A DNA stretch of 64,000 nucleotides, from the NCBI GenBank assembly GCA_963514005.1, contig OY740803.1, forward strand, positions 28,396,001 through 28,460,000. Direction: 5' to 3'. Both the position numbers and the translations under genes were made by a program. Origin of the DNA: Raja brachyura. Lineage: Eukaryota. The first letter of the stretch is position 1; every line of letters begins with the position of its first letter. This document shows, piece after piece, positions 6,703 through 60,339 of this stretch. The notes below the pieces were generated by a model, which was not told the origin of the DNA, did no database searches, and saw nothing but the letters and a program-made list of their open reading frames with translations.

Positions 6703-6851
6703 ACCATGGGCTACCCCGAGATTTAACAAAGCAAATTCACTGTGGAGAAACTAGGTTCCTTTTTGCACAAGATGTTATTTAAGTGTACTTCTATCTTTAC
6801 TCGGGTACAAATATAGTGCACTAATATGTTGGTTTCAAATTTGTTTTGCAG

Positions 6852-6945
6852 TTTGCATTTCCATCAGCCATGTTCACTGGTCCAAAACCCTGTGGAGGAA
6901 AAGTCCATTCAGTAACCTATGGTGGTGTCTCACTTTACCTGTAGT
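6852..6945 (+). CDS. TMEM94: TMEM94 coding exon
   Basis: ttttgcag|...|gtaagt. Encodes VCISISHVHWSKTLWRKSPFSNLWWCLTLPV, resembling human VFISITHVHRTKPLWRKSPLTNLWW. Confidence 0.93.
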
Positions 6946-7921
6946 GTAAGTATCGCCAGAGGAGAGCACTTTACACATTGAACATGCACCTCAGGTGAGA
7001 TGCGTAATGATGATACCCCTTTCCGTGTTCCATTTAGTACTTCTAGATGACATCTGGAGCAAGGTAAAGCTCCCTGTGTTCTGACCGTAATTCTGCCTTC
7101 ACAACTCGTAACCATTCTCCTTGAAAATGTATCTATTTGCATTCTTTGCAATTTTCTTTAACTAATAAGAAATAAAAAGCAAGTAGTGTTAAATTATTCA
7201 CTGCTCTGGGGATAAATGACTAAGCTTATTTCCCTTTTGTTTCTTTTGCATTTCACATAATATAATTCAATTTTTTTTTAAAACGGAATGTTAAGATTTG
7301 GGATGCTTCCAACTACGTGAGGATATTTAGGATGATATGCAATTTGAAATAATCGAGAATTCAATTTACCAGATTTTTTTGGCAGCATTTGGGCTGAAGG
7401 CCCTGTTCCCGTGGTGTATAGGTTCATGACTCTGTAACTCTGAGATCACGTCTTGGCCCTGAAAACAGTTAAAAGTCTTAAAAAAGCAGTTTGTGGGAGA
7501 AATATTGAGTCCATGGATGGAGGTTATTAAGCTATAAAATGAGTTGTTAAGATGGTTTTCAACTTTTGGGGGGGTGTAAAACCAGAGGCTATCAATGTGG
7601 GAATGGTTACTAATTGTAACTTGGGAGACATTGTTTACCGTTGAAAACTTAATGGTAGAAATTTAAGTAGAATATTGATATTGATTTATCTGCCACATGT
7701 GCTGAGATGCAGTGAAAAACTTTGTTTTTATAGAAAGGAATACAAGGACATGTAAATGAAGTTAGATGAAACAGATGTAAGACTGTATAGCAAAATGACA
7801 GAGCTGTTTGCAAATTTTCAGGCAACGTACAACCATGCAAGTATCACCCTGCCAAAAGGTTCATGACTCAGGATTTGCGTACCTGAATTGTACTTGAACC
7901 AATTTCCTTTGTGATCTCTAG

Positions 7922-24611: not shown

Positions 24612-24705
24612 TCAGTCTAACATAGCGTCCAGTTGATCAGCGAGGTCATCAAACATGCTTCCGATGTCATCCAGGATGTTGCCGGCAGACTTCGTGGAAT
24701 TGGAG
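24612..24705 (-). CDS. CASKIN2: CASKIN2 last coding exon (C-terminal LD-like helix) to TGA
   Basis: ttcccccag| then [30 protein letters not shown], the Caskin C-terminal signature. Phase 2 matches the upstream exon. Confidence 0.95.
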
Positions 24706-31078: not shown

Positions 31079-33394
31079 CTGTGGCTGGCCTCCTGTCTGG
31101 GGAATGCCTGTTGGAAGCAGGCACCGAGCCGGTCTGTTTGGGCGTTTGCTGGAGGTAGGGGAGGGCTGGTTTGGGAGACAGTGGGGGTCTGAGCGTCTGC
31201 TTGGTTCCCTTCTCCAAGGACTGGATGCTCCTCTCAATCTCAGCGATCCTGAACTCCACACAGGCGTCATCGTCCAAGTCAGTCTTGAGGTGGGGGCCGG
31301 AGTCCACAATGTGCACGGCCTGGGCCTCTGCGTATCGAGGTCCGCAATGCAGCGGCGATAGCTGCCCCGCTTCGTTCACACCCTCTACCGTCTCCTTCTC
31401 TTTGGCCTTTGGCCGCCGTTTCACCGTGTCGGACTCTGTCAGGTTAAACTCGGGAACCTCCGGTTGCTTGGGGGATGTGTCGGTCATCTCATTTGCCAAC
31501 TGGTCATCGTAGCCTGGCTTATCCTGCACTCCCTCCACGCCAGCCTCAGAGTCCACGCTGGGCTCCACTCGGCTGCCATTGTTTGGCTTTGGCCGTTGCT
31601 TGATGGTCAATATTCCCTCCTCGGCAAAAGGTATACACTCGCTGGAGCTGTTCTGTGACGATGAGGAGACCTCGAGGTTCCCTTTCTCCACTTTGGGCTC
31701 GTCCTCGCCATCCAACTTCTCCTCCTCGCCCTCCACCGTAACTGCAGCCACCGCCACCGCCTCCACGCTGACCGCAGGTTCGCTGATAGTTCGCCACCGG
31801 CCAGCTGAATCTCTGGCTTTCTCCAGCGACCCAGGGGCGGCCTTGCCCGACAGGGACATGCCATGCCAACGCTCTGGGCTCTTGGGAACAGTCCGCTGGC
31901 TCTCCTTCCTCACTTCCGGAATCTCCCTTTTCTCTGGTTTGGAAGGCTTTGGCAAGGCCGAGGGTTTGGCCTGGACTCCAGGAGAGCCAGTCAGTTCCAA
32001 GAGGGCAGCAATGCTCCTCACGTTGCCCTCGATATGATCCCGTTGAACGGGCAACCCTTCTACCAGGTCGGGAGCATTGCAGGGGGCAAAGGTTGGGTTG
32101 CAGACCTTCTCAAACTCAAACTCCTGCTCGTGGGAGCTGGACACGGAGCTCAGGCGCTTGGGGGGAGGGGGCGGAGGTCCCTTTCTCTTCCCACGGATGG
32201 CGAGCGACTGGCTGCGGATGATGTTTTTGTCTATTAGGCACTGGGCTTTGGAGGCCGCGTAGCGCCCCGGGCGCCGGGTGAGGGTGGCGTAGGAGCTGAC
32301 GGGCCCAACATCCAGCTCCTCCTCCTCCTCGGGCTCACCGTCCGACATAGCGTAACGGTTCAGGCTCTGCGACCTCTTCTTTGGCTTGTGGCTGCTGCCG
32401 TTGAGCTCCGTGCCCGGGATGGGATACTGGAGAATGGGCATGGTGGCGGGCAATGGCGCGGGGTCAGGGTGCGGCCCATCCTCCGGCCCGTCTCCGTTGG
32501 TCACACCACACTGGGCGTGCAGGTAGATAAAACCCTGGTTGACCGACACCTGGGCTGTGGGTTTTGGCATTTGAGACAAGAGCTGGGGCCTTGAGACATT
32601 CTGAACTGAGGCCTTGGGGCGTTCCAGCGTGGAGGAGAAGGCAGCAGGTCTACCTTTGATGGGAAGCTGAGGGTAGACCAGGCTCTGGCCTGCCTTCCCT
32701 TTATTTGGAGTATGGGGTGGGGTGAAGTTTGGTGATGAGGGCAGTGGGTACTGTGCCTGCAGTATCTTCACTGTGTTTGATGTGGGCACCCCTTTTTGTG
32801 GGGCAGGCCTCTGGTAGTGGTCTCGCCCGTCCGGCCCATTTCTCTCCTTGTTCGGGCTGCCTCCAATGCTGTTCCCCAAAGCCCTGCCGTTATCCTGGCT
32901 TCGACTGACAAGCTGAATAGGTATGGTGTCCCGAGAGTGGGCAAGGAAGGTGGTCCTCCCGCTGCTGCCGCTGCTGCTGCTGCCGTCCCCGCTGCCCAGG
33001 CTCTCCTGAGACTTGCTGTCTGACCTGGTCCCCCTGAGAACGTTCTCCTGGGAATGGCCAGATCCTCGAGATCGGATGCCGATGCTCTCCTGACTCCGGG
33101 AGATGGCTCCAATCTGCTTCATGACAAGGCTCTCCTGGCAGTTGTAACAAGGGTTGGACATGGCGGACTGCAACTCGTAGCTCAGCTCACTATCCTGGAA
33201 GGTCAGCATCTTGGGGGTGTGTGGAGAATTGCACTCCCCGTTCTCCCCCTGAGAGGGCTCAATGGTGACAATCTCCAAAGCGCTGGGAACCTTGCGCCGC
33301 AGTGTCTCTGTCTTGGCCTCCGCCTCTGCTTGATTTAACGCCTTCTGTACATCCAGGAGCCTCTTCACTGCGATCATCACCTTCTTCTGGTGCC
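31079..33394 (-). CDS. CASKIN2: CASKIN2 large exon (end of SAM2 plus proline-rich region)
   Basis: 2316-nt open exon, ttttgcag|...|gtaaca. Contains HQKKVMIAVKRL, TPKMLTFQDSELS, KKRSQSLNRYAMSDGE, SYATLTRRPGR, KGPPPPPPKRLSS, IPFAEEGILTIKQRPK, FNLTESDTVKRRPK. Confidence 0.96.
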
Positions 33395-33600
33395 CTGCAA
33401 AAATACACAAAGTCACTCAAATAGCAATCTCTTGGCCACCCTTATTCCTTTCCTGGAATTCTGTTTAAGACATACTCGGGTTCCAGACGTGGGCACAGAC
33501 TAGCGGAGGGAGGGGCTGTCAGGAAAGCCGTCGACACCCCTTTTACACAGATCATCTAACGGTGCGCTTCTGACTGCAACGGGTTGGATGCCACTCTTAC

Positions 33601-33739
33601 CCAGCTGTGTGATTCCAATCTCCTGCAGATCCTCCCAGGTGATCTCACTGATGAAGGTGATGCTGTCGTAGCCGTTATCCACCAGTTTCTTGTGGTACTG
33701 AGGCAAGCCGATGGCACTCAGCCACTCAAACAAACCCAC
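33601..33739 (-). CDS. CASKIN2: CASKIN2 exon, SAM2 domain
   Basis: ttgcag|...|gtaaga. Encodes [46 protein letters not shown]. Confidence 0.96.
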
Positions 33740-33984
33740 CTGCAAGACAGAGTAGCAGAGCGTGAGTATGGTGTGGATTATAGATTCCTGATACGCTTAG
33801 TTCAAAGGACTGCTCTCCCCCTGTACAATCCCTCTCTATACTGGGGATCCTTCGATGCATTTTGTGCGTAGTGGTCATTCTTTGCAGGCTAATCCAATCA
33901 CCAAACACTAGCAATGCATATGCCCTTTAGTGTAACTCTTCATTCATGATGCCCACTTATCACAGGCAGATGAATAAATATCAA

Positions 33985-34310
33985 CCGCCGGCTTACAAGA
34001 ATGATTCCAGGAATGAGTGGGTTAGCATACGATGAGCGTTTGACAGCACTGGGTCTCTATTCGCTGGAGTTTAAAAGGTTGAGGGGGGACCTCATTGAAC
34101 TTAAATAATGAAAGGTATAGATAGCGTGGAAAGGATGTTTCCACTGGTAGGAGAGTCTAAGATCAGAGGTCATAGCCTCAGTATTAAAGGGCGCTCTTTT
34201 AGAAAGGAGGTGAGGAGGAAAACTTCTTTAGTCAGAGGATAGTTAATCTGTGGAACTCATTGCCACAGTGGGCTGTGGAGGCCAAGTCAGTGGCTATTTA
34301 TAAGGCAGAG
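33985..34310 (+). mobile_element. CR1-type LINE fragment
   Basis: LGLYSLEFKRLRGDLIE; ctgtggaactcattgccacag. Confidence 0.85.
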
Positions 34311-34663
34311 AACTTGGGCCCTGGTGAGTTGAAGGGACCGTGACACAGCTGTAGACTTAATAATTGACAACCCCCGAGGTTTATTAAAAGTCCGCCTTCG
34401 GTTATTAAGGCTTAAAAACGGAGACACTGAAGATCTCAATGAATTGGACATAGGAACTGTGCATCAGTCCTGGGCTCAGCTCTCTTATTGCTCACTTCTA
34501 CAGCCATGTGGGTGAGGGCAGTACCCTTGCTTTGGGAGGGGGACAGAGAAAATCAGGTTCATAAGCGGGTTGATGCAACAACAAGAGCAAACAGAAAGGT
34601 GAGGAGAGTTGGTGGGGGAAGATGCTAGTAGGGTCCGCTCTGGACACCACAGGGATAACTCAC

Positions 34664-34765
34664 TGGTTTGTAGTCAGGAAGCCACTCCGGAATGCTCAGC
34701 TTGCCAATCTCCGTCGAAATCTTCTTTCTGTGACCAGGTTTCGTCACCCCAATCGCTGTCAGGTC
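34664..34765 (-). CDS. CASKIN2: CASKIN2 exon, SAM1 C-terminal half
   Basis: cacacag|...|gtgagt. Encodes [34 protein letters not shown] (102 nt, phase 0/0). Confidence 0.96.
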
Positions 34766-34994
34766 CTGTGTGTAGGATGGTGGCAATTAGTGTTGATCAC
34801 ATTAGTCAGCTGTGTGCTTTCCAAATCATGGACCAGACCAAGCCATACCCTGGGCTAGGGCAGCAAATGCCATGGCAGGGATTCTTCAGTCAAGCTTGGT
34901 ACTTTATATTGATTTTATGTATATGATAGCAGTGTAACTATCTTCCACTCACTGTATTATTGTCTGGGTAAATTACCATGCTTTTATTGGAAGA

Positions 34995-35302
34995 AACTTT
35001 TACTTTGGACTTTAGAGTTAGAGCACAGCAACAGGCCCTTCGGCCACCGAGACCACGACGACAAGGGCTCACCCCGTACACAAACCTACACACTAGGGTC
35101 AATTTTACAATTTACCGAAGCCAGTTAACCTACAAACCTGCACGTCGTTGGAGTGTGGGAGGAAACCGGAGCACCCGGAGAAAACCCACGTGGTCACAGG
35201 GAGAACGTACAAACTCCGTAGAGACAGCACCCGTAGACAGGATCAAACCCAGGTCTCTGGCGCTGTAAGGCAGCAACTCTACCGTTGTGCCATTGTGCCA
35301 CC
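34995..35302 (-). mobile_element. V-SINE
   Basis: ggagtgtgggaggaaaccggagcacccggagaaaacccacgtggtcacagggagaacgtacaaactcc. Confidence 0.85.
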
Positions 35303-36448
35303 TAAGCTGTCTCTTTTTTTAAATTTTTAAGTAAACTATTTTTTCAGTAAATGAAAACCAAGCCAATTGCTGACACTAGAAATCTGAAATAAAAACAGAA
35401 ATAGTTAAAGGTTTAGGACTGTTTCGTTCTCCATCCCGAATTTTCTGTATTTATTTCTGTTTTCCCAGGAATATGGCTCTGAGGGTTTAAGTCATTCCCT
35501 CCCTTTGATTCATTATGTGGTCAATAAATAGTCGATGTGAATCAATGCCACTGTGATCTGTGGCTCTAATCTATCCCAACCTTTGTCTACCCCAGCTGAA
35601 ATAGCAATGCAGCATACTGTACACTGCTCTAAACACCACACTATATGAATGTGAAGGCACTTGTGAGAGCAAGGAAAATGATTTGTAAGGATCATCTTAC
35701 CCAAAAGGATTACAGCTATCGGGGTTAGACTAAACAGCCTTGGCAAAGAGAAAGGCTGAGGAGAAATTTGACTGGGGTCTTTTAGATTCTGAAAGGGCGA
35801 AAAAGGACATGAGGGGCAATCATGAGGTGAGTTAAGATGGGCAGGACTTGTTATCCCTGGAATGAAGGAGGAATTACTTGGGTGCAAGGATGCCAAGATT
35901 ATGAGAAAAAGGAAAGGGTAGATGGTCAGAAAGCTCATTCCATGGTAGGAGTATCAAAAGCCAGAGTTTTAAGGGGGATCGGAGAGGTATATTATTTGCA
36001 CAGAGAGAGGTTGATAGCTGTAACGCACTGTCAGAAGAAGTGGTGGAGTTAGAAAAAATTATTACGTTTAAGGGACATTTAGACGTACATTTAAACAGGC
36101 ATTGTACGATGCAGTCCATGTGGGCAAATGGGATCAATGTAAATGGACACAAAGTAGGCATGGATGTAGTGTTCTGTATGGCACTGTGGTGTTCCCACAT
36201 GGGAAAAACCATATCCAGGGGCCAGATGTATCCTTATATCTGATGGGGGAATTCAGGAGAGAGCTCCAAAAGAGGTTTAAGTCAAGTTACCACTGGTAAT
36301 CAACAGCACATTCCTTTTAGGTGAAAACTAATGGAAAGACGAGTTGGTAAGTGTCCAGGAAGAACAGTGAAGGGGGCTTACATGGGTCAACGGCCTGTGG
36401 CACCAATTCTGACTGCAGTAAAAATGGAAGAGAGCAGGTTCAAAGTAT

Positions 36449-36584
36449 GTAGGAAGGAGCTGCAGATGCTGGTTTACACCAGACACAAGATAGAAGATAG
36501 ACACAAAATGCTGGAGTAATTCAGTGGGTCAGGCAGCATCAATGGGACAGGCAGCATCTCTGGAGAGAAGGAATGGACCCTTGA
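36449..36584 (-). mobile_element. Penelope pseudo-LTR-derived mini-element with 13-bp duplication
   Basis: AGGTTCAAAGTAT at 36436-36448 and 36585-36597 flanks gtaggaaggagctgcagatgctgg...cacaaaatgctggag. Confidence 0.75.
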
Positions 36585-36977
36585 AGGTTCAAAGTATTTT
36601 GGGTTCATTGAAATTCTAAAAATCTCCACAAGTAACCCCAACAGATACATTTATTTGGAGTGGATCTTATCTAGTTTCTCCACTACCCTTCATCAGCATG
36701 CACCAGAATGTCTTTCCCTCAGCAACATTCTCACTCACAAAGCCATCAGCCGATCAAAGCAGACAAAGAGGAAAGTTCACAGCAGCAGTCACGGTGAGCA
36801 GAAGTAGCCCCTCCAGTGCTGAGAGTCTCTTGCACTCCTCGACCTTGCCTTGCTCTGCCTCATTAGGCCTTTGCCTCTACTCACAAGTTCCCCACCTGTG
36901 GGTCCACTGGGGGGTAGCCTGGGTCACGAGCTTTGTCAGGCAACAGGGTGCTGTTTCCACCGCTCCCTGGTACTCAC

Positions 36978-37088
36978 CTCCGGGGTCATGCGGCTAATGG
37001 TTGGCACGTCGTAACCAGCGTTGATGAAGTTGGCCGTGTAGTGCTGAAGCTGGAATTCACTCAGCCAGTTAAAGATCGCTTCAGCGTC
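36978..37088 (-). CDS. CASKIN2: CASKIN2 exon, SAM1 N-terminal half
   Basis: ctctgcag|...|gtgagt. Encodes [37 protein letters not shown]. Confidence 0.96.
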
Positions 37089-45976: not shown

Positions 45977-46095
45977 CTTGCCGTTCTCCCCGCTGTTGCT
46001 GGCAGTCCGTCCATTGGCACTGTCGGTGCTTTGCCCACTGCCGGCGCTGCGAATACTGCCCGCACTCCCTGTGCTGCCCACACTATTCCTGTCAC
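45977..46095 (-). CDS. CASKIN2: CASKIN2 Ser/Gly-rich exon
   Basis: gtttgcag|...|gtacgg. Encodes [40 protein letters not shown], compare human [22 protein letters not shown]. Confidence 0.94.
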
Positions 46096-47519
46096 CTGCA
46101 AACAGAGGGACACACGATGTTGAGGCCGTTTACTTCCGACTAGCCGTAAGCCTTCAGCACTGGCACTCAGATCGGTGGAAAGACATGAAGCAAAACAACA
46201 ATCTACCCACACGACTATTTGTTTCAGTTTGGTGCAATCCCCGGTCCATAGACTTCCTCGCGTAACCAGCCCTGTGGGAGTACTCCAGAGGTCAGAGGTG
46301 CTTTCTGTCAGATGAGTTAAACTGAAGCCTGCTTCCACTGTCTCAGGTGAATGCAGGATGATAAACATTCCTCCACCCAGTAACACAGAACTACAACCCT
46401 ACCCAGTGGAATACTCTGTACACACCTCCACCACCTCTCCTTCACACCTGACTCACACTCTGTATGGCCAAATGTATTGTTCCCCTAAATCTTTGACTTG
46501 CGATCCTATTCTCATCAATATATTGTATTACCTCCTGGGATATCTTCCCGTGTTAAGCGATGCTCTATTCATTGATCTTATCAAGCATTTAAATATGTTC
46601 GCTGTGTAAAACACTGCCTGAACATTCCCTCTTTCCACATATAGAGCTTTTCCAAATTCCTTAAAAACACACGGTGAAGGTTTACTGAAATGAAGACTTC
46701 TCGGATTAATAGTAAGTTTCATTGTTGCAAATGGTTCAACATCAGAGCTCCAGCAGTTACTATGGGAAATAGAGTGTGAGGATGGATGGGAAACAGGCTT
46801 GGTGATGGCACTGGTACCCCATCCTCAAAGACTTGCTTCTTGTACACTCAGGGGGCGGAGAAATACCTCGGCATAAAGGGACACAGATGCAATAGAGACA
46901 TAGCCGGCAAGGTCAGTGGTCCTTTGAATCTTCTGTTCCTAGTCTCCAAATGCCTCGTCCAGTACTCCCCTTTCTCCATACATCCTGCATTGAAATAGAG
47001 ACTGAGGACCTTTTCTTGATTCATTCTTACAGAGTCCACAATTCTATACAAGCCCCCACCTCCATCACAGGTCCCTTCCTTCTCTGAAGAGTTCAGTTTC
47101 CCATGCCGTGGCATCTCATAACCTGTGCGTTTTACCTCACCCTCTGCCTATAGCACTGCAATGTCATTCTTTGTCCTTTTCCTTTGCATTTCTTAAAAAT
47201 AAACTATAGATGACAATTAATGGGAAAGGGGGATTTCAATAGAGGGTGAGCTTTATTTACTTTAGAAGCACAATTGGGATCATTAGACAAGAGCTCAGCG
47301 GGATAGGTAAAGGGAGGGAGCGAGCAGTTAGAGGCAGGTAAAGTAGATCCCACTCCATGACATTAGGGGATTGGGAAGGGTGGGCAGAAGCAAAGACTCA
47401 GTATTCTGCACACTGAACAAGAAGCATTGACTGTGGCAAGACAGTGTTCACAGTTGCTCCAGTACATTAGGAGATGACACGGGAGCAGGGATGAGCAGGT
47501 CAGCAAGCAGAATGCTTAC

Positions 47520-47573
47520 CGAGATCTGGCGGTCTGAGGACCCAGATATCCTCAGCAGGCGCTAAGAAGTGGG
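47520..47573 (-). CDS. CASKIN2: CASKIN2 54-nt exon encoding an ExIWVxR (CASK-interaction-type) motif
   Basis: ctctccacag|...|gtaagc. Encodes (A)HFLAPAEDIWVLRPPDL. Phase 1/1. Lies directly before the GDR-SVGSTGS exon, like EEIWVLRK in Caskin1. Confidence 0.85.
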
Positions 47574-48482
47574 CTGTGGAGAGTAAGAGGTCCATGCCAT
47601 TCCCTACCACAGACAAGAACACCCAATGGGTCTAAGTTTTTACTGCTAATATAAAACAACAACCAAAAGGTCTGAGTGCATCATTAAGAAATCATGCTCT
47701 CCCAATTAGAACAACCACTAACTCAGAACACTAGGCCACTTTCCCAGGTTGTTCAGGAGACCCACATTTAAGCCAAGAACCCATCCTGGAGGTCAGCACT
47801 GAGCAGAAACTCAACTGAATCACCCACATAAATATATCTTGACCGCAAATGCTGGTAAATAACTGGGCATCTGACAGTGAATGACTCACCTCCTGACATC
47901 TACAGCCTTTCTATTACCTACAAGGCACAAGTCAGGAGTGTCATGAATTACCCTTGACTTGCCTGGATAGTGCAGCTCCAACAACTCTGAAGAACTCAAC
48001 ACAAAGCTGCCCACTCGTCATCCTCTACGCCAATCATTCAACCCCTCTGCCATTGGCACACAGTGTCCGCACTGCTGACCATCTACAAAAGGTGGTACAG
48101 TTACATGCCCAGCCTACACTGACAGCGTCTCCCTGATCTCTGACCTTGAACAGCAAGAAGGACAAGTGCAGTCAAGTCAGACTTATTCGTCACGTGCACA
48201 ATAAAGTGCAGTGAAATGGGCCAACATCTCCAACTGCAGTTGCTGGAAAGCAGAAATAAAACAGAAAATGCTCCAAATGCTGAGCAGATGAGGCAAAGAG
48301 AAACGGAGTTAACGTTTCAGGTCGATGACCTTTCTACAGAAGTATGAACAAGGCAGTATGCTCAATGGGCTGAGTGGCCCATTCCTGTTCCCACACTTCT
48401 TCCCATCTTCACAAGCTACTGGAGAGCTATTTAAGAATATGAAATCCTACGGCGCTGGCTCGTGCCTTGGACGTTGGGTTAC

Positions 48483-48692
48483 CTTCAGAAACCTTGCTGT
48501 TGTCGGTGTTGTGACTGGTCCGACTGAAGGCCGGGTATTTGAAGGTGCGATGGGTGGGCAGAGTCTGCGAGTACATCTGCTGGTAGAGCTGCTGCGTCTC
48601 GTCGGTTTGTGAGGTGATCGAGCTGTGCTGGTGTGTCTTGGGGAAGAGCTGGCGCTGGTGAGGAGGCACCGAGGCATGACGAGTCAGGGTGC
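48483..48692 (-). CDS. CASKIN2: CASKIN2 exon after SH3
   Basis: tgtatccag|...|gtaacc. 210 nt, phase 1/1. Encodes GTLTRHASVPPHQRQLFPK...YPAFSRTSHNTDNSKVSE. Confidence 0.8.
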
Positions 48693-49772
48693 CTGGATAC
48701 AAAGAAAGCACACCAGGCAGCCCAATTAGACCATCACTGCTCCACAGTTACAATCGTGCAACTCTATCCTTTCACCACCTGTCCATTCCCCTATCCCCCA
48801 CCAGCCACGGCATTGCTAGGATATGGTTCAGTACATACTAAGCCTTACTACGTGGCCATTCCTCACCAGAGTATTAATCATAGAGAGAGATAGCATAAAA
48901 AAACAAGCCTTTGGCCCACGTCTGAGCCACCCATCAACCACCATTTGCACTAATCCTACCCTAATCCATTTATTCCCCCAATTTTCCTCTCAACAATCCC
49001 TGCCACCATAGATTCTATGACTTGTTTTCTCACAGAAACGTAGAAAATAGGTGCAGGAGGAGGCCATTCGGCCCTTCGGCCATTCATTGTGATCATGGCT
49101 GATCGTCCCCAATCAATAACCCGTGCCTGCCTTCTCCCCATTTCCCTTGATTCCATTAGCCCCTTGGTTCAGTTCAATCTCCTGAGGACATTGAACTGAA
49201 CCAACTCACGTTCCCTTTTCGTGAGTGAGCCGTTTAACCCCTAGTAACCCACAACCCTAATCCTACCTGGACAATGAAATACTGTGGATCACCTCCAGCA
49301 CGACTGTGGACTTGTTTTTCTAATTATGTTTATACATTAATGTCGTGATTTTGCACAGATACTTTCCTTTTATTGTCTTGAAGAATACGTGTGTAAATTG
49401 TGTATAATTTGTGTTGTTGTGTGTTGTCTGAGTCTATGTGCCTGTGCTGCTGCTGCTGCAAGCAACGTTTCCATTGAACCTGTATTGCACAGCACTCGTG
49501 CAGATGACTGGACTTAACTAGACTACATCCTAAAACTTAGTCCCAAATTGATATCCTTACAATGGAAGCAAATTGCATCCTTTTATATCCCCAGCAGGCA
49601 CCGAGTATTGAATTCAGTTCCATTTAACCGACATCACAGTCCCTTTCCACAAGCTTCTACATCAGAATCCAAGGTCTACCCATCTTCCACCTGAATGTGA
49701 TTACATCGCAGGATCCAGAACCCTTGTGTGAGAGTGAATAAAGCTTTCCCCCTGGCTGGCATGAGCACTGAC

Positions 49773-49890
49773 CTGATCGCTTGCTGATCACCTCAACAAT
49801 GGATGGGGGGAAATAGCCGACACAGTCCGTCCCCTTCTGGATGTCGTGAATGTGGCCCTTCCAGCGCCCATCAGCGTGCTGCTCAAGAAC
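49773..49890 (-). CDS. CASKIN2: CASKIN2 exon, SH3 C-terminal half
   Basis: tggcag|...|gtcagt. Encodes [39 protein letters not shown]; KGHIH and FPP-IVEV-SKR are CASKIN2-type rather than CASKIN1-type. Confidence 0.95.
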
Positions 49891-50591
49891 CTGCCACAGG
49901 GAGGGAGAGAGCGACAGACCAAGTCACCGACCGCAGACAGTCAAGGGAGTGCCGGTGGCGCAGAGGAAGGTAGCTGCACTGACTGAGCAGAGCGTAATAA
50001 AGTGAGAGTTTACTACTGTAATTGTCAGACCACAGGAAGCTGCCACTGAATACACAGTCAAGAACTCTCTCTGCCCAAGGGCAGCCTGGAATACACTGGG
50101 ATACAAGAGAAACTGCTGTTAATGCCTTTAATACAGGCACAAGTTTACTACAAATAAATATGAGCTTCACATCAGGTCTGGTGCACCAAAGGATGCTACA
50201 TGCTGTGGAATATGTAGTGAGACTGCTCCTGGCTGTAGTCTAGGCAGGGGCTTGTTATAGCCTATAATATACACAAGGAGCCCTATACGGACACAGTGAG
50301 CCGACTGGTGCCTGTAGTACAGAAAGGGGCCTGCTGCTCTCAGTAATATATAGATAGGGAGATAGGGGGGGGGGGGGGAGGGGGTGTTATTAATAGTAAT
50401 ATACGGAGGGAGCTCAGATTCCCTGTAATACAGGCGGAGGCTTGTTGTTTTGTGCAGTACATGCATGGTGTGTGCTATTTCATATAATACAGACAGGGAA
50501 CTCTGTTATGTACAAAGGGAGCCTGCTATTCTCTGAAATATACCCTGGAGAATTGTTATGATGTGTAGAATACAAAGAGGCATGCACTTTG

Positions 50592-50684
50592 ATGTCTGAA
50601 GAAGGGTCTTGACCCAAAACGTCACCCATTCCTTCTCTCCAGAGATGCTGCCTGTCCTGCTGAGTTACTCTAGCATTTAGTGTC
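50592..50684 (+). mobile_element. Penelope-derived mini-element, hammerhead core mutated (GAAA to AAAA)
   Basis: 11-bp duplication CATGCACTTTG at 50581-50591 and 50685-50695. Confidence 0.75.
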
Positions 50685-50824
50685 CATGCACTTTGGTGTA
50701 TACGTTCAGGTGTGTACAATATGGCACGGTTGCACTGGGGCTGGGATTACACAGAGCCAAGGCTCACAGGTAGGTTTGTGTATAGCCATCCTGTTGCAGG
50801 TCACCCAATGCCAGGGCTGCTCAC

Positions 50825-50919
50825 CGTGATAATATCGCCTGCCCGGATGTTGAGCGAGGTGAGGTCGTGAATATTCCAACAATCCTTCAGGGCTCGGACC
50901 TGGAGAACTCCCGAGGCCT
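50825..50919 (-). CDS. CASKIN2: CASKIN2 exon, SH3 N-terminal half
   Basis: ttccgacag|...|gtgagc. Encodes [32 protein letters not shown]. Confidence 0.95.
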
Positions 50920-51554: not shown

Positions 51555-51663
51555 CTCTCAGTAGCTGCTTGATCTCTTTGCTTGCCTGCGAGGTGGTGAA
51601 CTGGTTGACAATGTCCAGGGCTGTCTGGCTGTAGGTGTTCCTGATGCTGACATCAATACCCGC
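51555..51663 (-). CDS. CASKIN2: CASKIN2 exon, last ankyrin repeat
   Basis: tgcacag|...|gtaaag. Encodes [36 protein letters not shown]. Confidence 0.95.
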
Positions 51664-52269
51664 CTGTGCAAGGAATGGGGTGCAGGAGAGTAAAGATGAA
51701 TGACGGGGCAAGGTTTGAACCACTTCAGCCCTCCCTCCAACTCCCTCAGCCATCCCCCCCATCACTCCCCACACGCCCCATGGAACCAACAGAAGCCCTG
51801 TGCTAACCCACTGGCACTAATTCCAATTAATTCCAGATGGAAAAGCATGACATGTAGTGGGGATAGGATGGTGGACGGGATTGAGGACGGTGCTTCTGCC
51901 CAGCCAAAATATTGATCCATTTCTGACAGACACACTCTGCTGAATGGATGGAAAAGTTGGCAGCTGCCCAGCTGCTGGCAAACTGGCCTGGGTTGTTCAA
52001 TGACCCGCTCCTTGTATACGGTCACTGGGCAAGCTGTATGCCCCTCACACCTTACTGCAAGCACAGGGAGGGAGCTGCTACCTCACAGCGCCAGAGTCCC
52101 ATGATAAATCCTGAACCCTGATTCATTGATTGATACTTCATTATCACGTGTGACGTGTCACCGTGAAATTCTTTGTTTTGCATACCATACACAGAGTATG
52201 CAAAGAGTTGCCATGTAAAGGGCATCAACAAAGTGACAGAGGTATGTCCTGGGAACATATCTATGAAGA

Positions 52270-52790
52270 TATATCCTGGGCCCAGCACATCAAAACAATT
52301 ACAAAGTAAGCTATACACTGCCTCTACTTCCTCGTAAGATTGAGGAGATTATTCTATCAAACTTCTACAGGCGTACAGTCGAGAGTATTCTGATTGGTTG
52401 CATCACGGCCTGGTTCAGTGACTCCAATGTCCAAGAACAAAGGAGGCTGCAGAAAGTGGTGGGCATTGCCCGGACCATCATGGGTATAGACCTCCCATAC
52501 TATCGCAGGGATCTACAGGTAGCATCGCCTCACAAAAGCAGCCAAAAACATCGAAGACCCACACCACCTCAGCCACGTGCTAATCTTGTTGCTACCTTCA
52601 GGGAGTAAGTACAGGAGCGTGAGAACCGTTAATTTAAGATTCAAGAGCAGCTTTTCCCCATCAATCATCAGGCTCCACAGTCACACTGCACAATCCTAAC
52701 CACAACACAGCCTCAGCAACTATCTATGGTGGACTTTGTATAGGTTGCACTGTTATGTCTGGTTATCTAATAAACTAAACTAAACTGATT
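52270..52790 (+). mobile_element. Rex1/Babar-like non-LTR retrotransposon 3' fragment
   Basis: LYFL..LRRF / SNFYRRTVESILIGCITAWF / FKSSFSPSIIRL remnants; aataaactaaactaaact tail. Confidence 0.7.
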
Positions 52791-53592
52791 TTACAAGCAG
52801 ATCCTCTGGGGATCACACAGGGGGTTTTGCAGGAAAGTGTTGTGTTCACTATTGCCTTTTCCAATGTTGTAATAGGTGCCACACTTCAAATCTAATTGAC
52901 TGGGGGCAAAGGACATTAAAACCTCTTGATTCATTAATCATTAAAGGTGAGGAAAGAGTGAGAATGGGCACTGAAGGTGTAAGGTAGAGGCACTGGAGGG
53001 AACGATTGGTGTACATGTCCGAGGCACAAGAGATTGCAGATGCTGGAATCTGAAGCAAAGACAGGAGAGTTGATGGAGGAATACAATAGGTCAGGCGGAG
53101 GGAAATGGGCAGTTAATGTTTGGGGTCGAGACCCTTCATCTGAGCTGAAAGAGTAGAGGGGATGGTGCCAGCAAAAAGCGGTAGGGAGGAGGGGTGGGGC
53201 GAAGAGCTGGCAAGCGGTAGGCAGATCCAGGTGAGGAATAGGCAAGTGAGTGCAGGAAAGAAGGCTGAAGAGTGACAAGTAGAGAAGAAAAGGATGCAGA
53301 TTCAGGAATCTGATCGGAATGGAAGAGTGGGACCAAATAAGGAGGGTGGTTGCAGATGTGAACAACTGAGGGACAGGAGGTATGAGGAGTGGGGAAGTAG
53401 ATCGCAGAGTGATCCAAGGACAATGATCCAATGATCTATTGGGAGATGTGGGGCTGGTGTAGGTGAGGGTGATGGAGGCCAATGAACAATTGAAGGCTCC
53501 TCTCTGAGGAACTCAGCTCGGACAGCTGAGTCTGTGGAGCTTGGAGGGCACTGTTGATTTACTTTACCAGAGTTTACCCCACGCAAACTTAC

Positions 53593-53701
53593 ATCGAGCA
53601 GCAATCGGACCACTTCAGTCTTGCCACACAGTGCTGCTTCATGCAATGCGGTCCCTGTTTTAGCCACCCTGTTGGCATCGATCCCAGCCTTGATGAGCAA
53701 C
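53593..53701 (-). CDS. CASKIN2: CASKIN2 exon, ankyrin repeat
   Basis: ctgttccag|...|gtaagt. Encodes [36 protein letters not shown]. Confidence 0.95.
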
Positions 53702-54657
53702 CTGGAACAGAGAGAAGAACGGCAGGGTTAGCCGGGCTCGGGGAGCACGTGTGGAGTTACTCTTCGGAGATTCACCCAGCCCAAGGTGCAGGGGAGCTGA
53801 AGGAGTGGGGTGGAGGGAGTGACTATTGTGAGAGTGGGCAAGGACATGTTGTGGTGAGGAAGCCTCTGACAGTGCGCAAGTTATCTTTGCAGAAAGGGCA
53901 CGAGGGATGACAATGGAAAGTGCGCAATGAAGGAGCTCAGGGAGAGAGCACAGGGTTTCACTGCAGAGCGAGGGTGGGTGGTATCTCAGGCGGAGGACGG
54001 CACAGAAAGCCACAAAGAGCAAACACAGTGCACTGAGCGGTGGGTACAAGGAGGCTCCGTAGCAAGAGGGGCAAGAGGACTCCACCGAGATGGATAAGTG
54101 AATCCCAGAGCGAAGGGATCCTATGCCAAAAGCAAGCAAGGGGATGCCCGCACAAAACAAGATGCATCAGGAATGCACTGAGGAATTCCCATTAACAGCA
54201 TGCACAAGAAGTCGCTGTGGGGAAGAGGAGCAAGGCCCACCACAGGGAGATCGTGTGAAAGTCCCGTGAACTGAATGTATCGTGCTCTGGCGTTGAGGAG
54301 TGCATGGGGATTGCAGTGCGATAATTTGTGAGGTGAGCACAGACCCAGAGGCATTGGCAGAGGCACCATAGAAACATAGAAAATAGGTGCAGGAGTGGGC
54401 CATTCGGCCCTTCGAGGCGGGACTGCCTTTCAATATGATCACGGCTGATCATCCAAAATAAGTACCCCATTCCTGATTTTTTTCCCCCCATAATCCCTCG
54501 ATTCCGTTAGCCCTAAGAGATAAGTCTAACTCTCTCTTGAAAACACTGCTCTCCACTGCAACACTCCACTGCTACATACGGAGGGATAGAGTGAATAGCA
54601 GAGGAAACGGCAGCACTCCCATGCACCAAACTGGCTCACCTCCACAGCTCTCTGGAG

Positions 54658-54975
54658 TTTTAGTTTAGTTTAGTTTTGAGATACAGCGCAAAAAGCAGCC
54701 ACCAAGTCTGCATTGACCAGCGATCCCCGCACCTTAACACAACCCTACACACTCTAGGGACAATTTAACATCATACCAAGCCAATTAACCTACAAACCTG
54801 TACGTCTTTGGGTTGTGGGAGAAAACTGAAGATCTCCGAGAAAACCCCTGCAGGTCACGGGGAGAACGTACAAACTCTGTGCAGACCAGCACCGTAGTCA
54901 GGATCGAACTACGAATAAATTTGACTTTGACTTTGACCCGGGTCTGTGGCACTGTAAGACAGCAACTCTACCTCT
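54658..54975 (-). mobile_element. V-SINE
   Basis: (TTTAG)n tail and reverse V-domain. Confidence 0.8.
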
Positions 54976-55100
54976 ACTGGGAGTGTAGGGTTCACATCCC
55001 CCGTGCAAGGAAAAAAATACTTCTCATCTCCATCTTAAAGACATGACCCATTATTCTAAAATGAAGCCTCCATAGATTCCATACTCAGCAGCCACCTTAT

Positions 55101-55580
55101 CATAGAAACATAGAAATTAGGTGCAGGAGTAGGCCATTCGGCCCTTCGAGCCTGCACCGCCGTTCAATATGATCATGGCTGATCATCCAACTCAGTATCC
55201 CGTACCTGCCTTATCTCCATACTCTCTGATCCCCTTAGCCACAAGGGCCACATCTAACTCCCTCTTAAATATAGCCAATGAACTGGCCTCAACTACCCTC
55301 TGTGGCAGAGAGTTCCAGAGACCCACCACTCTCTGTGTGAAAAAAGTCCTTCTCATCTCGGTCCAAAAGGATTTCCCCCTTATCCTTAAGCTGTGACCCC
55401 TTGTCCTGGACCTCCCCAACATCGGGAACAATCTTCCTGCATCTAGCCTGTCCAACCCCTTAAGAATTTTGTAAGTTTCTATAAGATCCCCTCTCAATCT
55501 CCTAAATTCTAGAGAGTATAAACCGAGTCTATGCAGTCTTTGTTCATAAGACAGTCCTGACATCCCAGGAATCAGTCTGG
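55101..55580 (-). mobile_element. Young CR1/HER1-type LINE 3' fragment, near-identical to 863-1340
   Basis: Same 3'UTR and RLIPGMSGLSY...GLYSLEFRRLRGDLIE frame. Confidence 0.93.
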
Positions 55581-56418
55581 TTCCATCTGCTCCGAAGCCT
55601 GTGCGCAATAATAAATATGTACACCATAAAGTATGAGCACTAACTGTAGATGTGGACGCGATATGTTGATGCTTGGTGCATAATGCATGCAGAGCATTGT
55701 TTACACACAGAGTGCTTTGCTCCACTTACTCTAGATCCACAATGGATCCTCTGCTAATGCGACATGTGGTGACTGAAGGCTGCAAGCTAATTAGCATTCT
55801 CGGTTAGACTAACGCCTCTGTAAAGCTGTGAGTGTCTCACCTCATTACTGTTCAACATCAACATTATAAATCTCATTAAAGCTGCCCTGAAGCTGATAAA
55901 AGCAAGAGCCCCCTTGGCAGTGTTAAAGCCCACTGAGACAGATGGTTAAACACTTCTTTGGTGGTTCATACCTTGCTCTGATTATATATCTGAGCAGATA
56001 AAGTGATTTTTTATCAGCCTCTCCCTGGTTCTGCTCCGCATGGAACATGTACTGGGAATACTGTGCTCGCTGCTTCTGACCAACAAGGAAATGATTCCAA
56101 TAGTTTTTTTAATAGGGCAGCTCTGGGCATCTGAGCACTGAAATGTCCAACCAAATCCCCAGATTTGGCAACCAGGTCACCAAGTAGTCTCAACCATAAC
56201 CAATGCCCACACCTCGGCATCCCTCACTTCCATCCCTGCATCTCCGCATCCCATGCATGCTTCCAGATGACTGAAGTCTGCCCTTCCAGCAGAGCACAAA
56301 ATATCCACGTATGTTATTTCACAGAATAGATACCAGTGCCCTGGCCCTCAGTCAACATGAAAGATATAACCCTATCACTCTCATTCTGAGGTTGTGGGAT
56401 CTTGCTGTGGAAAATTTG

Positions 56419-57444
56419 TAGGTATGTTACAAAACCTACCTTTAGCGGTGCTGCAGTTCTGTCACTGGCCGTGTGCGCGACTTTGGCGCCTTTGGGGGGG
56501 GGGGCGGGGTTATAATGCGATTTTCCTCTTGCCATCTGGAGCTTTATTTTCTCGGAGTGCAAACTTTTTCTAAAGATTCGTTCCGACTGCCAGTAAGTTA
56601 AATTTTGTTTTTTAATCGCCCGACTATTTCAGTGCTGCAGTAAAATTAAAATTAGCTCCTAATGCCGTGAACGCCGACAACGGGGACAGATTTTACGTAG
56701 GGGACAGGTAAATGAAAGTTGTTTATTTTTTCATATAAACTTATTTGTTTAGATGACCTTAATCAACATTTCATGTTGCGAAACGGTGATTTATTCCCCA
56801 TACGAACTGGCAGTATTTTTCCTGCCAATATGGGGTTTAAATTCACCGCAACCGCAACTTTCCAATCCATCGCGTTCCAGAAATTCCCACTCGCAAGCTG
56901 TTTTAAATGGCCATTAATCTACAGGCATTAAACACTAAATTCCTTCAATTTGGCCTATAAATTAATGACAATTAGATTTAAAAATCATGTAATATTGTGA
57001 ATTCTTGTGTGAATGTTATTTGGACACTTAGGCTTTAAAAAAAATGTTAATTTTTTCTTAAGAAATGGATAGATGTTTAGACCTAGTAATTGAATTTTGT
57101 AATTAGCTACAATTGGATAACTAACTAATTATATGCTTTAATTTCAGGTCATCCAAGTAAGATTGTTTCATATTTGTTTCAGAATGTTTCAATAACTTAA
57201 ATCTTAAATTTTTAAGAAAGTTATGGGCTTTTGACTGTCCTCGATCACAACTTTTGTGTTTAGTCAATAGAAAAGCAATAGGAAACAAGTTGCTAATTTC
57301 CGAGTATGAAAATGGCCATAACCTTTTTAATACTGAAGATATGAAAGTGAATTTGGTGTCAAATTAAACTTCTTTTTATGCTTTATCTGATGGGATAAAT
57401 TGCAGACTTGATTTTTAAAACCTCAAACTTTTGTAACATTGCTA
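56419..57444. mobile_element. ~1 kb non-autonomous DNA transposon (possibly hAT) inserted into a Deu-domain SINE
   Basis: TIRs TAGGTATGTTACAAAA and TTTTGTAACATTGCTA; flanks AAATTTG and AAATGTG; AT-rich interior. Confidence 0.7.
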
Positions 57445-58607
57445 AAATGTGCTGATAAGTTTCCTGCATAGCAATGCCAACACACTTTAAATAGTGCCTC
57501 ACTCCCTGTGAAATTATTTTAGATGTCCTCAGCTTGTGAAAGAAAAAGTCTCTTCAATATCCTCCACCACTATGATATCTGTCCACTGAGGAAGTTATTG
57601 GAAGAGTAGTCAGTGGCCGGGGCTATTACTCTGGAAACAGATTAAAACCACGATAGCTAGAGGATGGGGGGTGGGGGGGGGGGTTTGATTCAAGGCATTA
57701 AATAAATATGGATCCAAAGTTTGTCCTAATAATGGATGAAATGACCAGACTCTCATAAAAATCCTTCTGGGTGAATGGATGAGAAAAACACAAGCAGATT
57801 CCGTGAGGCTAAACTCAGACCAATTCCAGCCTCAATGTGGAGAGACTGGATAGGTTGAGGTTGTTTTCTTTGGGACGCAAGAGGCTGAGGGGGAAGAAAG
57901 TGTGGGGTGTAAAATAATGAGGCCTCTGCTAAAGGGTTAAAAGCTTTAGAGCTTTAGAGTCATCATTGGAGAGGTGATGAGGAAAGTTTTCTCACCAGAG
58001 GGTAGTGGGTGACTGGAGCTCAACATCTGCATGGGTGATGAAGGCAGGAACTTTCACGGGTTCACAAAAGGCCCAGACGAGCCCAGGAAAAGAAGGCTTC
58101 GGAGCAAGTGCTGGTGAGTGGGATCAACATAGATTTGAACCTGACGGTCAACACGCCCCTAGAGAGCTGAAGATCTTGTTTCAGTGCTGTGTGACTCCCT
58201 AACTAGAAGAAATTGTCTGGCAAGAGGCCAGGTCTTTGGAAAGTCAGAGGATGCATGAAATGGGGCACCCTGACTGGTAGGAGTCAGGGCCGACAGTTTA
58301 TAATTTAACGGGCTGCTGTCTGGGAAGCTATGCCTAAAGTCCTGTCTGACCACTGGGGAAGATCAGCCTGACAAATGCTAATGCACAAAGGACAACAGCA
58401 GCTGTTATAGGGAGGGCAGTCTCGGCCCCTTCTGCTTCCCCTCCCCCCCCCCAAGGGAAATGGCAATGTGCGCTCAGGGGGTCGAGTATTACAGCGGACT
58501 CCATCCAAGGATTTAGAACCTTGCACTGACAAACTGACCATGAATCAATGGCATCGTGAGTGCAATTTGACAGCAAGATATAAGGTTGACACATCCTTGT
58601 TAGTTAA

Positions 58608-59294
58608 GGGCCTGTCCCACTTACATGTCCTAGGCACGCAAATTCGCAACCTCGTCATCGCGTTGAGACGCACGGGCATCGTATGGCCACGCGGGGCTGG
58701 TCCCACTGAGAAGCGCGGAGGGGTATGTAGTTGTGCGCAACATCGCACGGGGCTCTGAAATTTTTGTAATGAACGGAATCTTTACGTGTCACCGGCCTGT
58801 CGCGTAACTGACGGCCAAAGTGGGACAGGCCCAAGACCCTGGCACGACACAACGTCTCACCTCCAACAGCAGCAGTAGCAGGCAAACGATGTCCGAACTC
58901 GGCCTGGGCCTCACGGCCGTTGCGGACTCGGATCTACTTCTACCCCCACTTCTACTCCCAGAGCGGGGCCAAGAAAATTGAAGATAGACACAAAATGCTG
59001 GAGTAACTCAGCGGGACCGGCAGCATCTCTGGAGAAAAGCAATGGGTGACGTTTCGGGTCAAGACCCTTCTTTCAGACTGAAGAAGTCTCGACACGAAAC
59101 ATCATCCATTCCTTCTCTCCAGAGATGCTGCTGGTCCCGCTGAGTTAATCCAGCATTTTGTGTCCGTCTTCAAATGACGTCACGCACTCCAGACGGCTGT
59201 GCGGGCGAATGAAGTTGCGCAGGACCGTCGTAGCTCAACGCGACCACGAGGCCATGTAATTAGCATGCCAAGGACACGTAAGTATGACAGGGAT
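58608..59294. mobile_element. Composite MITE (GGGCCTGTCCCACTT termini) containing a palindromic Penelope-derived segment (~58980-59172)
   Basis: TTAA-GGGCCTGTCCCACTTAC ... GTAAGTATGACAGGGAT-TTAA; internal inverted end AAGTGGGACAGGCCC at 58818-58832. Confidence 0.65.
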
Positions 59295-60208
59295 TTAACA
59301 CACAAGCAGGTGCACAAGAACATCAATCTACATCCAACCTGAGCTGCGATTCACAGCTTTTGCTGGATTAGTGTAGTTGCAGACTAACTCTGCATCCAAC
59401 CCACACTGTGCCTCCACTGGGAGTATCTGATGGGACATTGCAGAATCTTTAAAGATGCAACGCATTTGAGCTTATTCCAAGCGCAGGCATTGTCCACACT
59501 CATGGAACACTTCATGTGGAGAGACCCTCAGATTAATTTCTCCTAGGAGCCCATGGTCCTAACTCTGGAGGATTTTTGTGGCGCTTCGCACAAAATAATA
59601 AGTCTCACGCAACAGCAATTGTCCATCAGCCTGCCCGGATCACTACGACCACCTTCTACAGTCATATGCATCTGCTGGTTCCAGATCAAGCAACTGGACA
59701 ACATGGTTCAATTACCAAATAGTTGATCAGAAGAGGAAGTTTTAAGGGCCATTTCACAGTTGGGAGGAAAGTAAAGAGATGGAGAAGGTGTGGAGGGGGA
59801 TTGTGGACACCAGGAAAGCTAAGTCAGTAAGTGAGGGAACAGGTGGATGGATGGCACGTGGGAGGTGATTCTGCAAATTCCATATAATTGTAAGGCCTGT
59901 AGTTTGGCCACAGTCAAAACCAACCAGGACTCTCAACCACAGGCGAAGAAGAAAGCTGAGGTGAAAGCCCAGCTACAATTTCATTGAATGGCAGAACAGA
60001 CATGTGGGGTTGAATAGTTCTATTTCTTCTGTTTATAGAGGGACTGTGGCCAACCATATGACCACAACTCACAGGTACTCCAATTCCTCAACCAGCTAAA
60101 CAACTTGAATTGCTTTACTGAGACATCTAGGCCTGGGAGTGACACTGACAAAATGCATCTTATATCAAGGCTAAAAACAGGTTTGCGCGTTAAAATGAAA
60201 GGCAGTAC

Positions 60209-60339
60209 TTGATAATGTCCTTGTGTCCATTCTTTGCAGCCAGATGCAGTGGCGTGGTGAAGTTGGCATCGGCACTGTCTTTGGACTGACCCTCCAGCAA
60301 GGCGACACACATGTTACTATTCAGCAGGAGCTGGGCGAC
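60209..60339 (-). CDS. CASKIN2: CASKIN2 exon, ankyrin repeat (most 5' exon found in the window)
   Basis: ctcctcag|...|gtactg. Encodes [43 protein letters not shown](K). Phase 0 to 2 matches the next exon. Confidence 0.93.

Follow-up and report, generated by a model that had tools for sequence, protein, structure and literature searches.

We consider it quite probable that the CASKIN2 gene of Raja brachyura holds a frame-preserving exon of ~84 nt which arose before the CASKIN1/CASKIN2 duplication, carries a Caskin1-type motif, would switch docking on CASK by splicing, and was lost later in the tetrapod line. The sequence and frame of the exon, the orthology of its gene, its positional homology with an exon of CASKIN1 and its skipping were obtained directly; inclusion in skate, binding to CASK, and the loss with its date we infer. 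CASK is a synaptic protein on which CASKIN1 docks through the motif, according to the available part of a structural preprint (bioRxiv 10.1101/2022.01.16.476467).

Gene identity and layout

The features of the window (the whole 64,000-nt stretch that was analysed) are collected in Table 1. To place the gene among the Caskins, we built a maximum-likelihood tree from 37 rows picked for taxon spread and 275 columns taken from the ankyrin, SH3, SAM and tail regions, with the CASK-interaction-domain (CID) exon excluded; the tree is unrooted, having no outgroup and no mammals. The window gene fell with caskin-2 and not with CASKIN1 (21 caskin-2 plus the window gene vs. 15 caskin-1, support 100/100), and in the tree columns it is 98.5% identical to little skate caskin-2 and 71-75% identical to caskin-1. 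Both SH3 exons scored higher against PDB Caskin-2 2KE9 (63.5 and 40.5 bits) than against Caskin-1 7ATY (42.6 and 34.2 bits). A separate CASKIN1 is present in the same genome (contig C21, 92% to little skate caskin-1). These results, together with a TMEM94 exon in the window, bear out the first-pass annotation, which had named the gene CASKIN2 from its linkage to TMEM94 and from its SH3 residues. CASKIN1 as the identity of the window gene was ruled out by the tree.

The TMEM94 exon was identified through PDB; a protein-atlas search with it gave no match. A TSEN54 domain was found on the CASKIN2 contig, ~290 kb beyond the end of the window. TMEM94 and TSEN54 are presumably the neighbours of CASKIN2 in the human gene order. 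The window gene shows the ANK-SH3-SAM-SAM-Pro-rich-tail layout, and four further 5' exons lie beyond the window end. The skate CASKIN2 SH3 (50825-50917, 49774-49887) has Cys at two sites that are Phe and Arg in the solved Caskin-2 SH3. Elsewhere in the window, a 200-residue open frame on the minus strand (955-1557), with similar fragments at other places in the window, resembles the final part of a CR1-type LINE reverse transcriptase.

Table 1. Coordinates of features in the window (position 1 is the first letter of the stretch)
Feature	Position	Strand	Remarks
CID-encoding exon of CASKIN2, probable cassette; longer form, 84 nt (favoured)	47520..47603	-	phase 1/1, TAG acceptor, GTAAGC donor
54-nt form of the first-pass annotation	47520..47573	-	internal in-frame CAG acceptor 47575-47574
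CASK-interaction motif EDIWVLR	47533..47553	-	agrees with acidic-x-hydrophobic-W-hydrophobic-x-R consensus
YGCY cluster, possible splicing-regulator site	47414..47513	-	6 in 100 nt just downstream of donor
Linker exon A, upstream, 210 nt, phase 1/1	48483..48692	-	cassette in relatives
Downstream GDRNS exon	45977..46095	-	directly joined to exon A in RNA-type contig
Two SH3 exons	49771..50918 (~50918-50822, 49887-49771)	-	tblastn
Three ankyrin-repeat exons	51556..60339 (~60339-60208, 53700-53590, 51663-51556)	-	
Three SAM-tandem exons	33599..37088, ends approximate	-	
Large exon, SAM2 end and proline-rich region	31080..33395	-	93% identical to little skate caskin-2
Last coding exon, Caskin tail	24615..24695, 5' end approximate	-	
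TMEM94 exon, synteny marker tail to tail with CASKIN2	6839..6946	+	PDB TMEM94 chains, E=5e-10

Exon structure and motif

A clean 54-nt phase-1/1 exon had been described directly before the GDRNS exon. Its splice sites and frame hold (G/GTAAGC donor, phase 1/1, frame kept between 48692-48483 and 46095-45977); its 5' end is probably off by 30 nt. A second in-frame acceptor (47605-47604) lies 30 nt upstream of the internal CAG site and gives an 84-nt exon, 47603-47520, whose full codons (47601-47521) read NGMDLLLSTAHFLAPAEDIWVLRPPDL (27 codons). The pyrimidine fraction is 0.7 before the internal CAG site vs. 0.6 before the upstream TAG site. All nine cartilaginous-fish records with the exon have the 28-residue form, and the 18-residue (54-nt) form was found in none of these nine nor in other annotated relatives. 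The 27 skate codons are identical to the annotated caskin-2 inserts at 17 (sawfish), 15 (catshark), 14 (basking shark) and 14 (white shark) positions, and the first nine codons, present in the long form only, at 6, 4, 4 and 4 positions, respectively. Because the 28-residue inserts of relatives match, including the part confined to the long form, the exon is more likely 84 nt than 54 nt in length, judging from these alignments, and the 54-nt start would at best be an alternative 3' splice site. Neural microexons measure 51 nt or less, and either form of the skate exon is longer.

The motif of the type ExIWVxR reported on a small exon of its own was recovered as EDIWVLR; the next residue is Pro, against Lys in Caskin1. 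No other match to the loose pattern acidic-x-hydrophobic-W-hydrophobic-x-R/K turned up when all six frames of the window were scanned. A near-identical loose pattern gave 5 off-target matches in 200 kb of another contig, so ~1-2 matches per 64 kb are expected by chance from the pattern alone. The pattern by itself proves little, and the motif is judged real because of its position, splice sites and conservation. No Pfam match was found for the 27-residue exon peptide, and no PDB match among chains of at least 20 residues.

Distribution among vertebrates

The exon with its motif is annotated in 9 of 70 cartilaginous-fish caskin-2 records, from 4 of 22 named species (species counted by hand); the other 18 species have no caskin-2 model containing it, and neither do the five skate records. 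The motif is also found in annotated caskin-2 of sturgeon, paddlefish, gar, bowfin and many teleosts. It was absent from all 196 annotated lobe-finned-fish and tetrapod caskin-2 records in the set (8 coelacanth and lungfish, 5 caecilian, 183 reptile and bird). These tallies refer to long records, with seven fragments of <800 residues excluded and large clusters represented by 15 listed members, and the caskin-2 set holds no mammal, frog, salamander or zebrafish.

The first search gave the strict motif in 4 of its 120 representatives. In a search with the motif region, the best 120 of 150 hits (415 candidates) were 119 ray-finned-fish proteins and the shark query; among the 120 matches listed, 113 have the strict motif and seven have Gln at the first position. 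Such a search selects for the motif, and it speaks for presence and not for prevalence. Among 69 distinct caskin-2 peptides, W, V, L and R are invariant, the residues before W are always D/E and then I/V, and the flanks vary freely. This variation pattern is, as far as the peptides tell, that of a motif under selection. The acidic first position is replaced by Q in six and by K in one of the 69 caskin-2 peptides; it is E in 44/44 caskin-1. Natural variants of the consensus are the Lys that replaces the acidic first residue in sawfish caskin-2 and the Gln found there in seven teleost records. The residue after the motif Arg is N, D, S, Q, K or A in other caskin-2, and Pro occurs there in 0/69 caskin-2 and 0/44 caskin-1 peptides. 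By annotation, the CID exon is not peculiar to skates and is common to most fishes; the fish CASKIN2 exon is already visible in public protein models.

The reported failure of mammalian CASKIN2 to bind CASK probably reflects a later loss, on the evidence of the 196 motif-less records and of the reported absence of the motif in mammals. This agrees with the first-pass annotation, which had placed the loss of CASK binding in CASKIN2 after the duplication. It is possible, though somewhat unlikely, that the exon persists unannotated in early lobe-finned fishes or amphibians and that the loss was later or repeated. Absence from coelacanth, lungfish and amphibian models is no proof of loss, because the intact exon of this skate genome is likewise missed by skate annotation; the sample has only 13 coelacanth, lungfish and caecilian records, and frog and salamander caskin-2 are not among them. 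The 183 negative reptile and bird records, with several isoforms in many species, stand against such persistence.

Splicing of the exon

Caskin-2 isoforms with and without the exon are annotated within one species in sawfish, catshark, basking shark, white shark and sterlet, and likewise in gar, bowfin, two eels, several carps (grass carp) and salmonids (salmon); the annotated isoforms are predicted models. In caskin-1, the motif is present in 103 of 120 records, and the 17 motif-less records comprise 11 clean skips (skates, sharks, gar), five garbled linkers and one axolotl model lacking more. The annotation thus supports a cassette exon in both paralogues, in line with the alternative splicing suggested at first pass.

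The expected inclusion junctions were not found in skate. One RNA-type contig of another skate joins 48483 directly to 46095, which skips the exon, and in a second contig run one end is loose and reads into the GDRNS exon; no transcript with the CID exon appeared in the two RNA-type contig sets of that skate. The same sets were repeat-swamped over the CASKIN1 exon region, with no exon joint visible. The RNA nature of these contigs is guessed, and missing cover over the exon alone proves nothing. Inclusion in skate is likely a minor or tissue-restricted form, judging from contigs and models.

The DNA of a close relative shows one change in 391 nt around the exon vs. 5.4 expected (p=0.03, for an interval chosen after looking). 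The YGCY cluster downstream of the donor, possibly an MBNL-type splicing-regulator site, has p=0.003 when compared with 100-nt tiles across the window (one of ten tests run); YGCY counts are 0-3 after 12 other exons of the gene and 0 after the CASKIN1 CID exon. No enrichment around the CID exon was found for YCAY, TGCATG or branch-point motifs.

The ancestral exon might instead be vestigial in skates, either poorly included or weakened in binding by the change from Lys to Pro, on a road to loss like that of tetrapods. Skipping alone was seen in the two contig sets, none of the five skate models includes the exon, and the Pro is unique among the 113 compared peptides. However, the splice sites, the frame and every consensus position are intact, divergence around the exon is low in the close relative, the residue after the Arg is variable in other caskin-2, and rare forms get dropped from contigs. 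We regard a vestigial exon as doubtful and prefer a functional cassette of restricted use.

Two other variations were observed in the linker. Exon A (~70 codons; ~29018690-29018470 on contig C21 in CASKIN1) is a second frame-preserving cassette of both paralogues, and the annotation has isoforms without it for sharks, lungfish, gar, turtles, crocodiles and birds. Many shark, reptile and bird models come as isoform pairs with and without a single Ala ahead of GDRNS, the pattern expected of a tandem acceptor; the skate GDRNS acceptor (46095-46101) has no second AG.

Predicted docking on CASK

In the available text of the structural preprint, Caskin1 I375 and W376 occupy a CASK pocket formed by V117, H120 and Y121, L378 contacts F111 and R379 contacts H278; the Kd is given as ~1 μM for the extended domain and ~7 μM for a short peptide, and the acidic first residue of the consensus is said to raise affinity (bioRxiv 10.1101/2022.01.16.476467). 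The skate CASKIN2 exon has the same residues as Caskin1 I375, W376, L378 and R379. Over residues ~94-143, the skate CASK exons show no difference from the PDB chain, F111, V117, H120 and Y121 included (numbering mapped by hand); the CASK kinase-domain and L27 exons are on the plus strand of contig C12 (~39016000-39121200). The skate Pro occupies the Caskin1 K380 site, which is outside the consensus; that site falls inside the 371-381 peptide called complete in the available part of the preprint (bioRxiv 10.1101/2022.01.16.476467). We rate it as probable that the skate CASKIN2 peptide binds the CASK CaMK domain, and predict a higher chance of binding for shark and teleost CASKIN2 peptides.

It is improbable that the fish motif has another partner in place of CASK, or that its affinity for CASK is too low to be relevant. 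The first position tolerates Q or K in 7/69 caskin-2 peptides as against E in all caskin-1, and it is there that the acidic residue reportedly adds affinity; yet the invariant positions are the CASK-contacting ones in the part of the preprint at hand (bioRxiv 10.1101/2022.01.16.476467), and the CASK pocket is unchanged in skate.

Probable origin before the duplication

The skate CASKIN1 CID exon (C21:29008910-29008812) is 99 nt long, in phase 1/1, and encodes EEIWVLRK. The exon order in CASKIN1 (last SH3 exon, ~70-codon exon A, 99-nt CID exon, GDRS exon) equals that in CASKIN2. In both skate genes the distance from the motif Arg to the donor is four codons plus one base, and when anchored on the donor, the motif codons of the two align without gaps, with unrelated flanks. 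Since position, phase and motif-donor spacing are common to both paralogues, we infer descent from the pre-duplication gene; the CID exon is likely older than the CASKIN1/CASKIN2 duplication, as these comparisons suggest. The proposal that CASK binding is ancestral to both paralogues is thereby upheld at the level of exon and motif, with the equivalent exon in CASKIN1 and with sharks, sawfish, sturgeon, gar, bowfin and teleosts positive. Independent gain by CASKIN2, through convergence or gene conversion from CASKIN1, is very improbable: short linear motifs arise easily, the consensus is reported in unrelated proteins (bioRxiv 10.1101/2022.01.16.476467, available text) and the Caskin tree is unrooted, but exon position, phase and motif-donor distance are equal in both paralogues next to unrelated flanks, and the motif occurs in CASKIN2 of both cartilaginous and ray-finned fishes.

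Proposed mechanism and implications

In exon-including isoforms, the C-lobe groove of the CASK CaM-kinase domain would receive the Trp together with the hydrophobic residues next to it, as with Caskin1, at a predicted micromolar affinity, and the docked exon-bearing CASKIN2 would compete with Mint1, liprin-alpha and Caskin1 for CASK. When it is skipped, the protein would correspond to the CASK-blind form known from mammals. We predict that fish CASKIN2 turns CASK binding on and off through splicing. The skipped state probably became fixed in the lobe-finned/tetrapod line, before the ancestor of reptiles, birds and mammals at the latest. As a tentative extension, CASK docking may have been a splice option of the ancestral vertebrate Caskin that was kept in both fish paralogues, with the broadly expressed CASKIN2 turning it on in certain tissues by regulated inclusion of the cassette; the mammalian difference between Caskin1 and Caskin2 would then be a frozen splice choice.

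That CASKIN2 has no CID and cannot bind CASK is asserted with no taxonomic limit in the available portions of two sources (PMC4994250; bioRxiv 10.1101/2022.01.16.476467); if our reading is true, this applies to tetrapods only. In that case, a CASK link that is missing in mice and people would play a part in fish models of caskin2 or CASK loss, and the exon would show cleanly how an ancestral splice choice can become a fixed paralogue difference. Both the motif and the family are known, and the advance is one of evolutionary context and not of a new mechanism.

Comparison with known systems

No report of a CID in fish CASKIN2 or of a spliced CID exon was found in the full-text literature (most subscription journals and the supplement of the structure preprint lie outside it), including the available parts of PMC8997851, PMC7736295, PMC12058032 and PMC6856520. 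The terms CID, splice and isoform are not used in the accessible part of PMC12646245, and a term search of bioRxiv 10.1101/2024.03.15.585234 gave nothing. Human CASKIN2 is termed a CASK ligand, with no experiments, in the available text of PMC12731226.

A shark caskin-2 with the exon matches Pfam PF16600 with 56 bits from profile position 1, and the exon-bearing shark, sawfish and sturgeon isoforms pass from position 1-2; a motif-less turtle caskin-2 passes too. The turtle protein reaches the cut-off through the following Ser/Gly-rich exon, and the label is no measure of CASK-binding capacity. Precomputed PF16600 labels, which are also found on motif-less bird and turtle proteins, were rejected as evidence for the CID.

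The closest known system is the Caskin1 CID (PF16600), which like the skate exon sits between SH3 and SAM1 and fits the consensus; the CID exon of skate CASKIN1 itself has the same phase and donor distance. Skate CASKIN2 differs from the Caskin1 CID by Asp for the second Glu, by Pro for Lys and by an unrelated N-terminal flank. In annotation, inclusion is apparently minor in cartilaginous-fish caskin-2 (9/70), whereas the caskin-1 motif is present in 103/120 records. The Trp motifs of Mint1, Tiam1 and liprin-alpha2 are reported to compete for the same CASK C-lobe Trp pocket (bioRxiv 10.1101/2022.01.16.476467; PMC7736295, available parts of both); all three are unrelated proteins, and Mint1 and liprin have extra contact surfaces that the Caskin-type motif reportedly lacks. 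Mammalian CASKIN2 is orthologous to the skate gene by SH3/SAM similarity and by its neighbours. It is reported, in the portions available, to have no CID and not to bind CASK (PMC4994250; bioRxiv 10.1101/2022.01.16.476467); the skipped skate form has an equal CID-less layout, whereas the skate CASKIN2 gene still encodes the motif.
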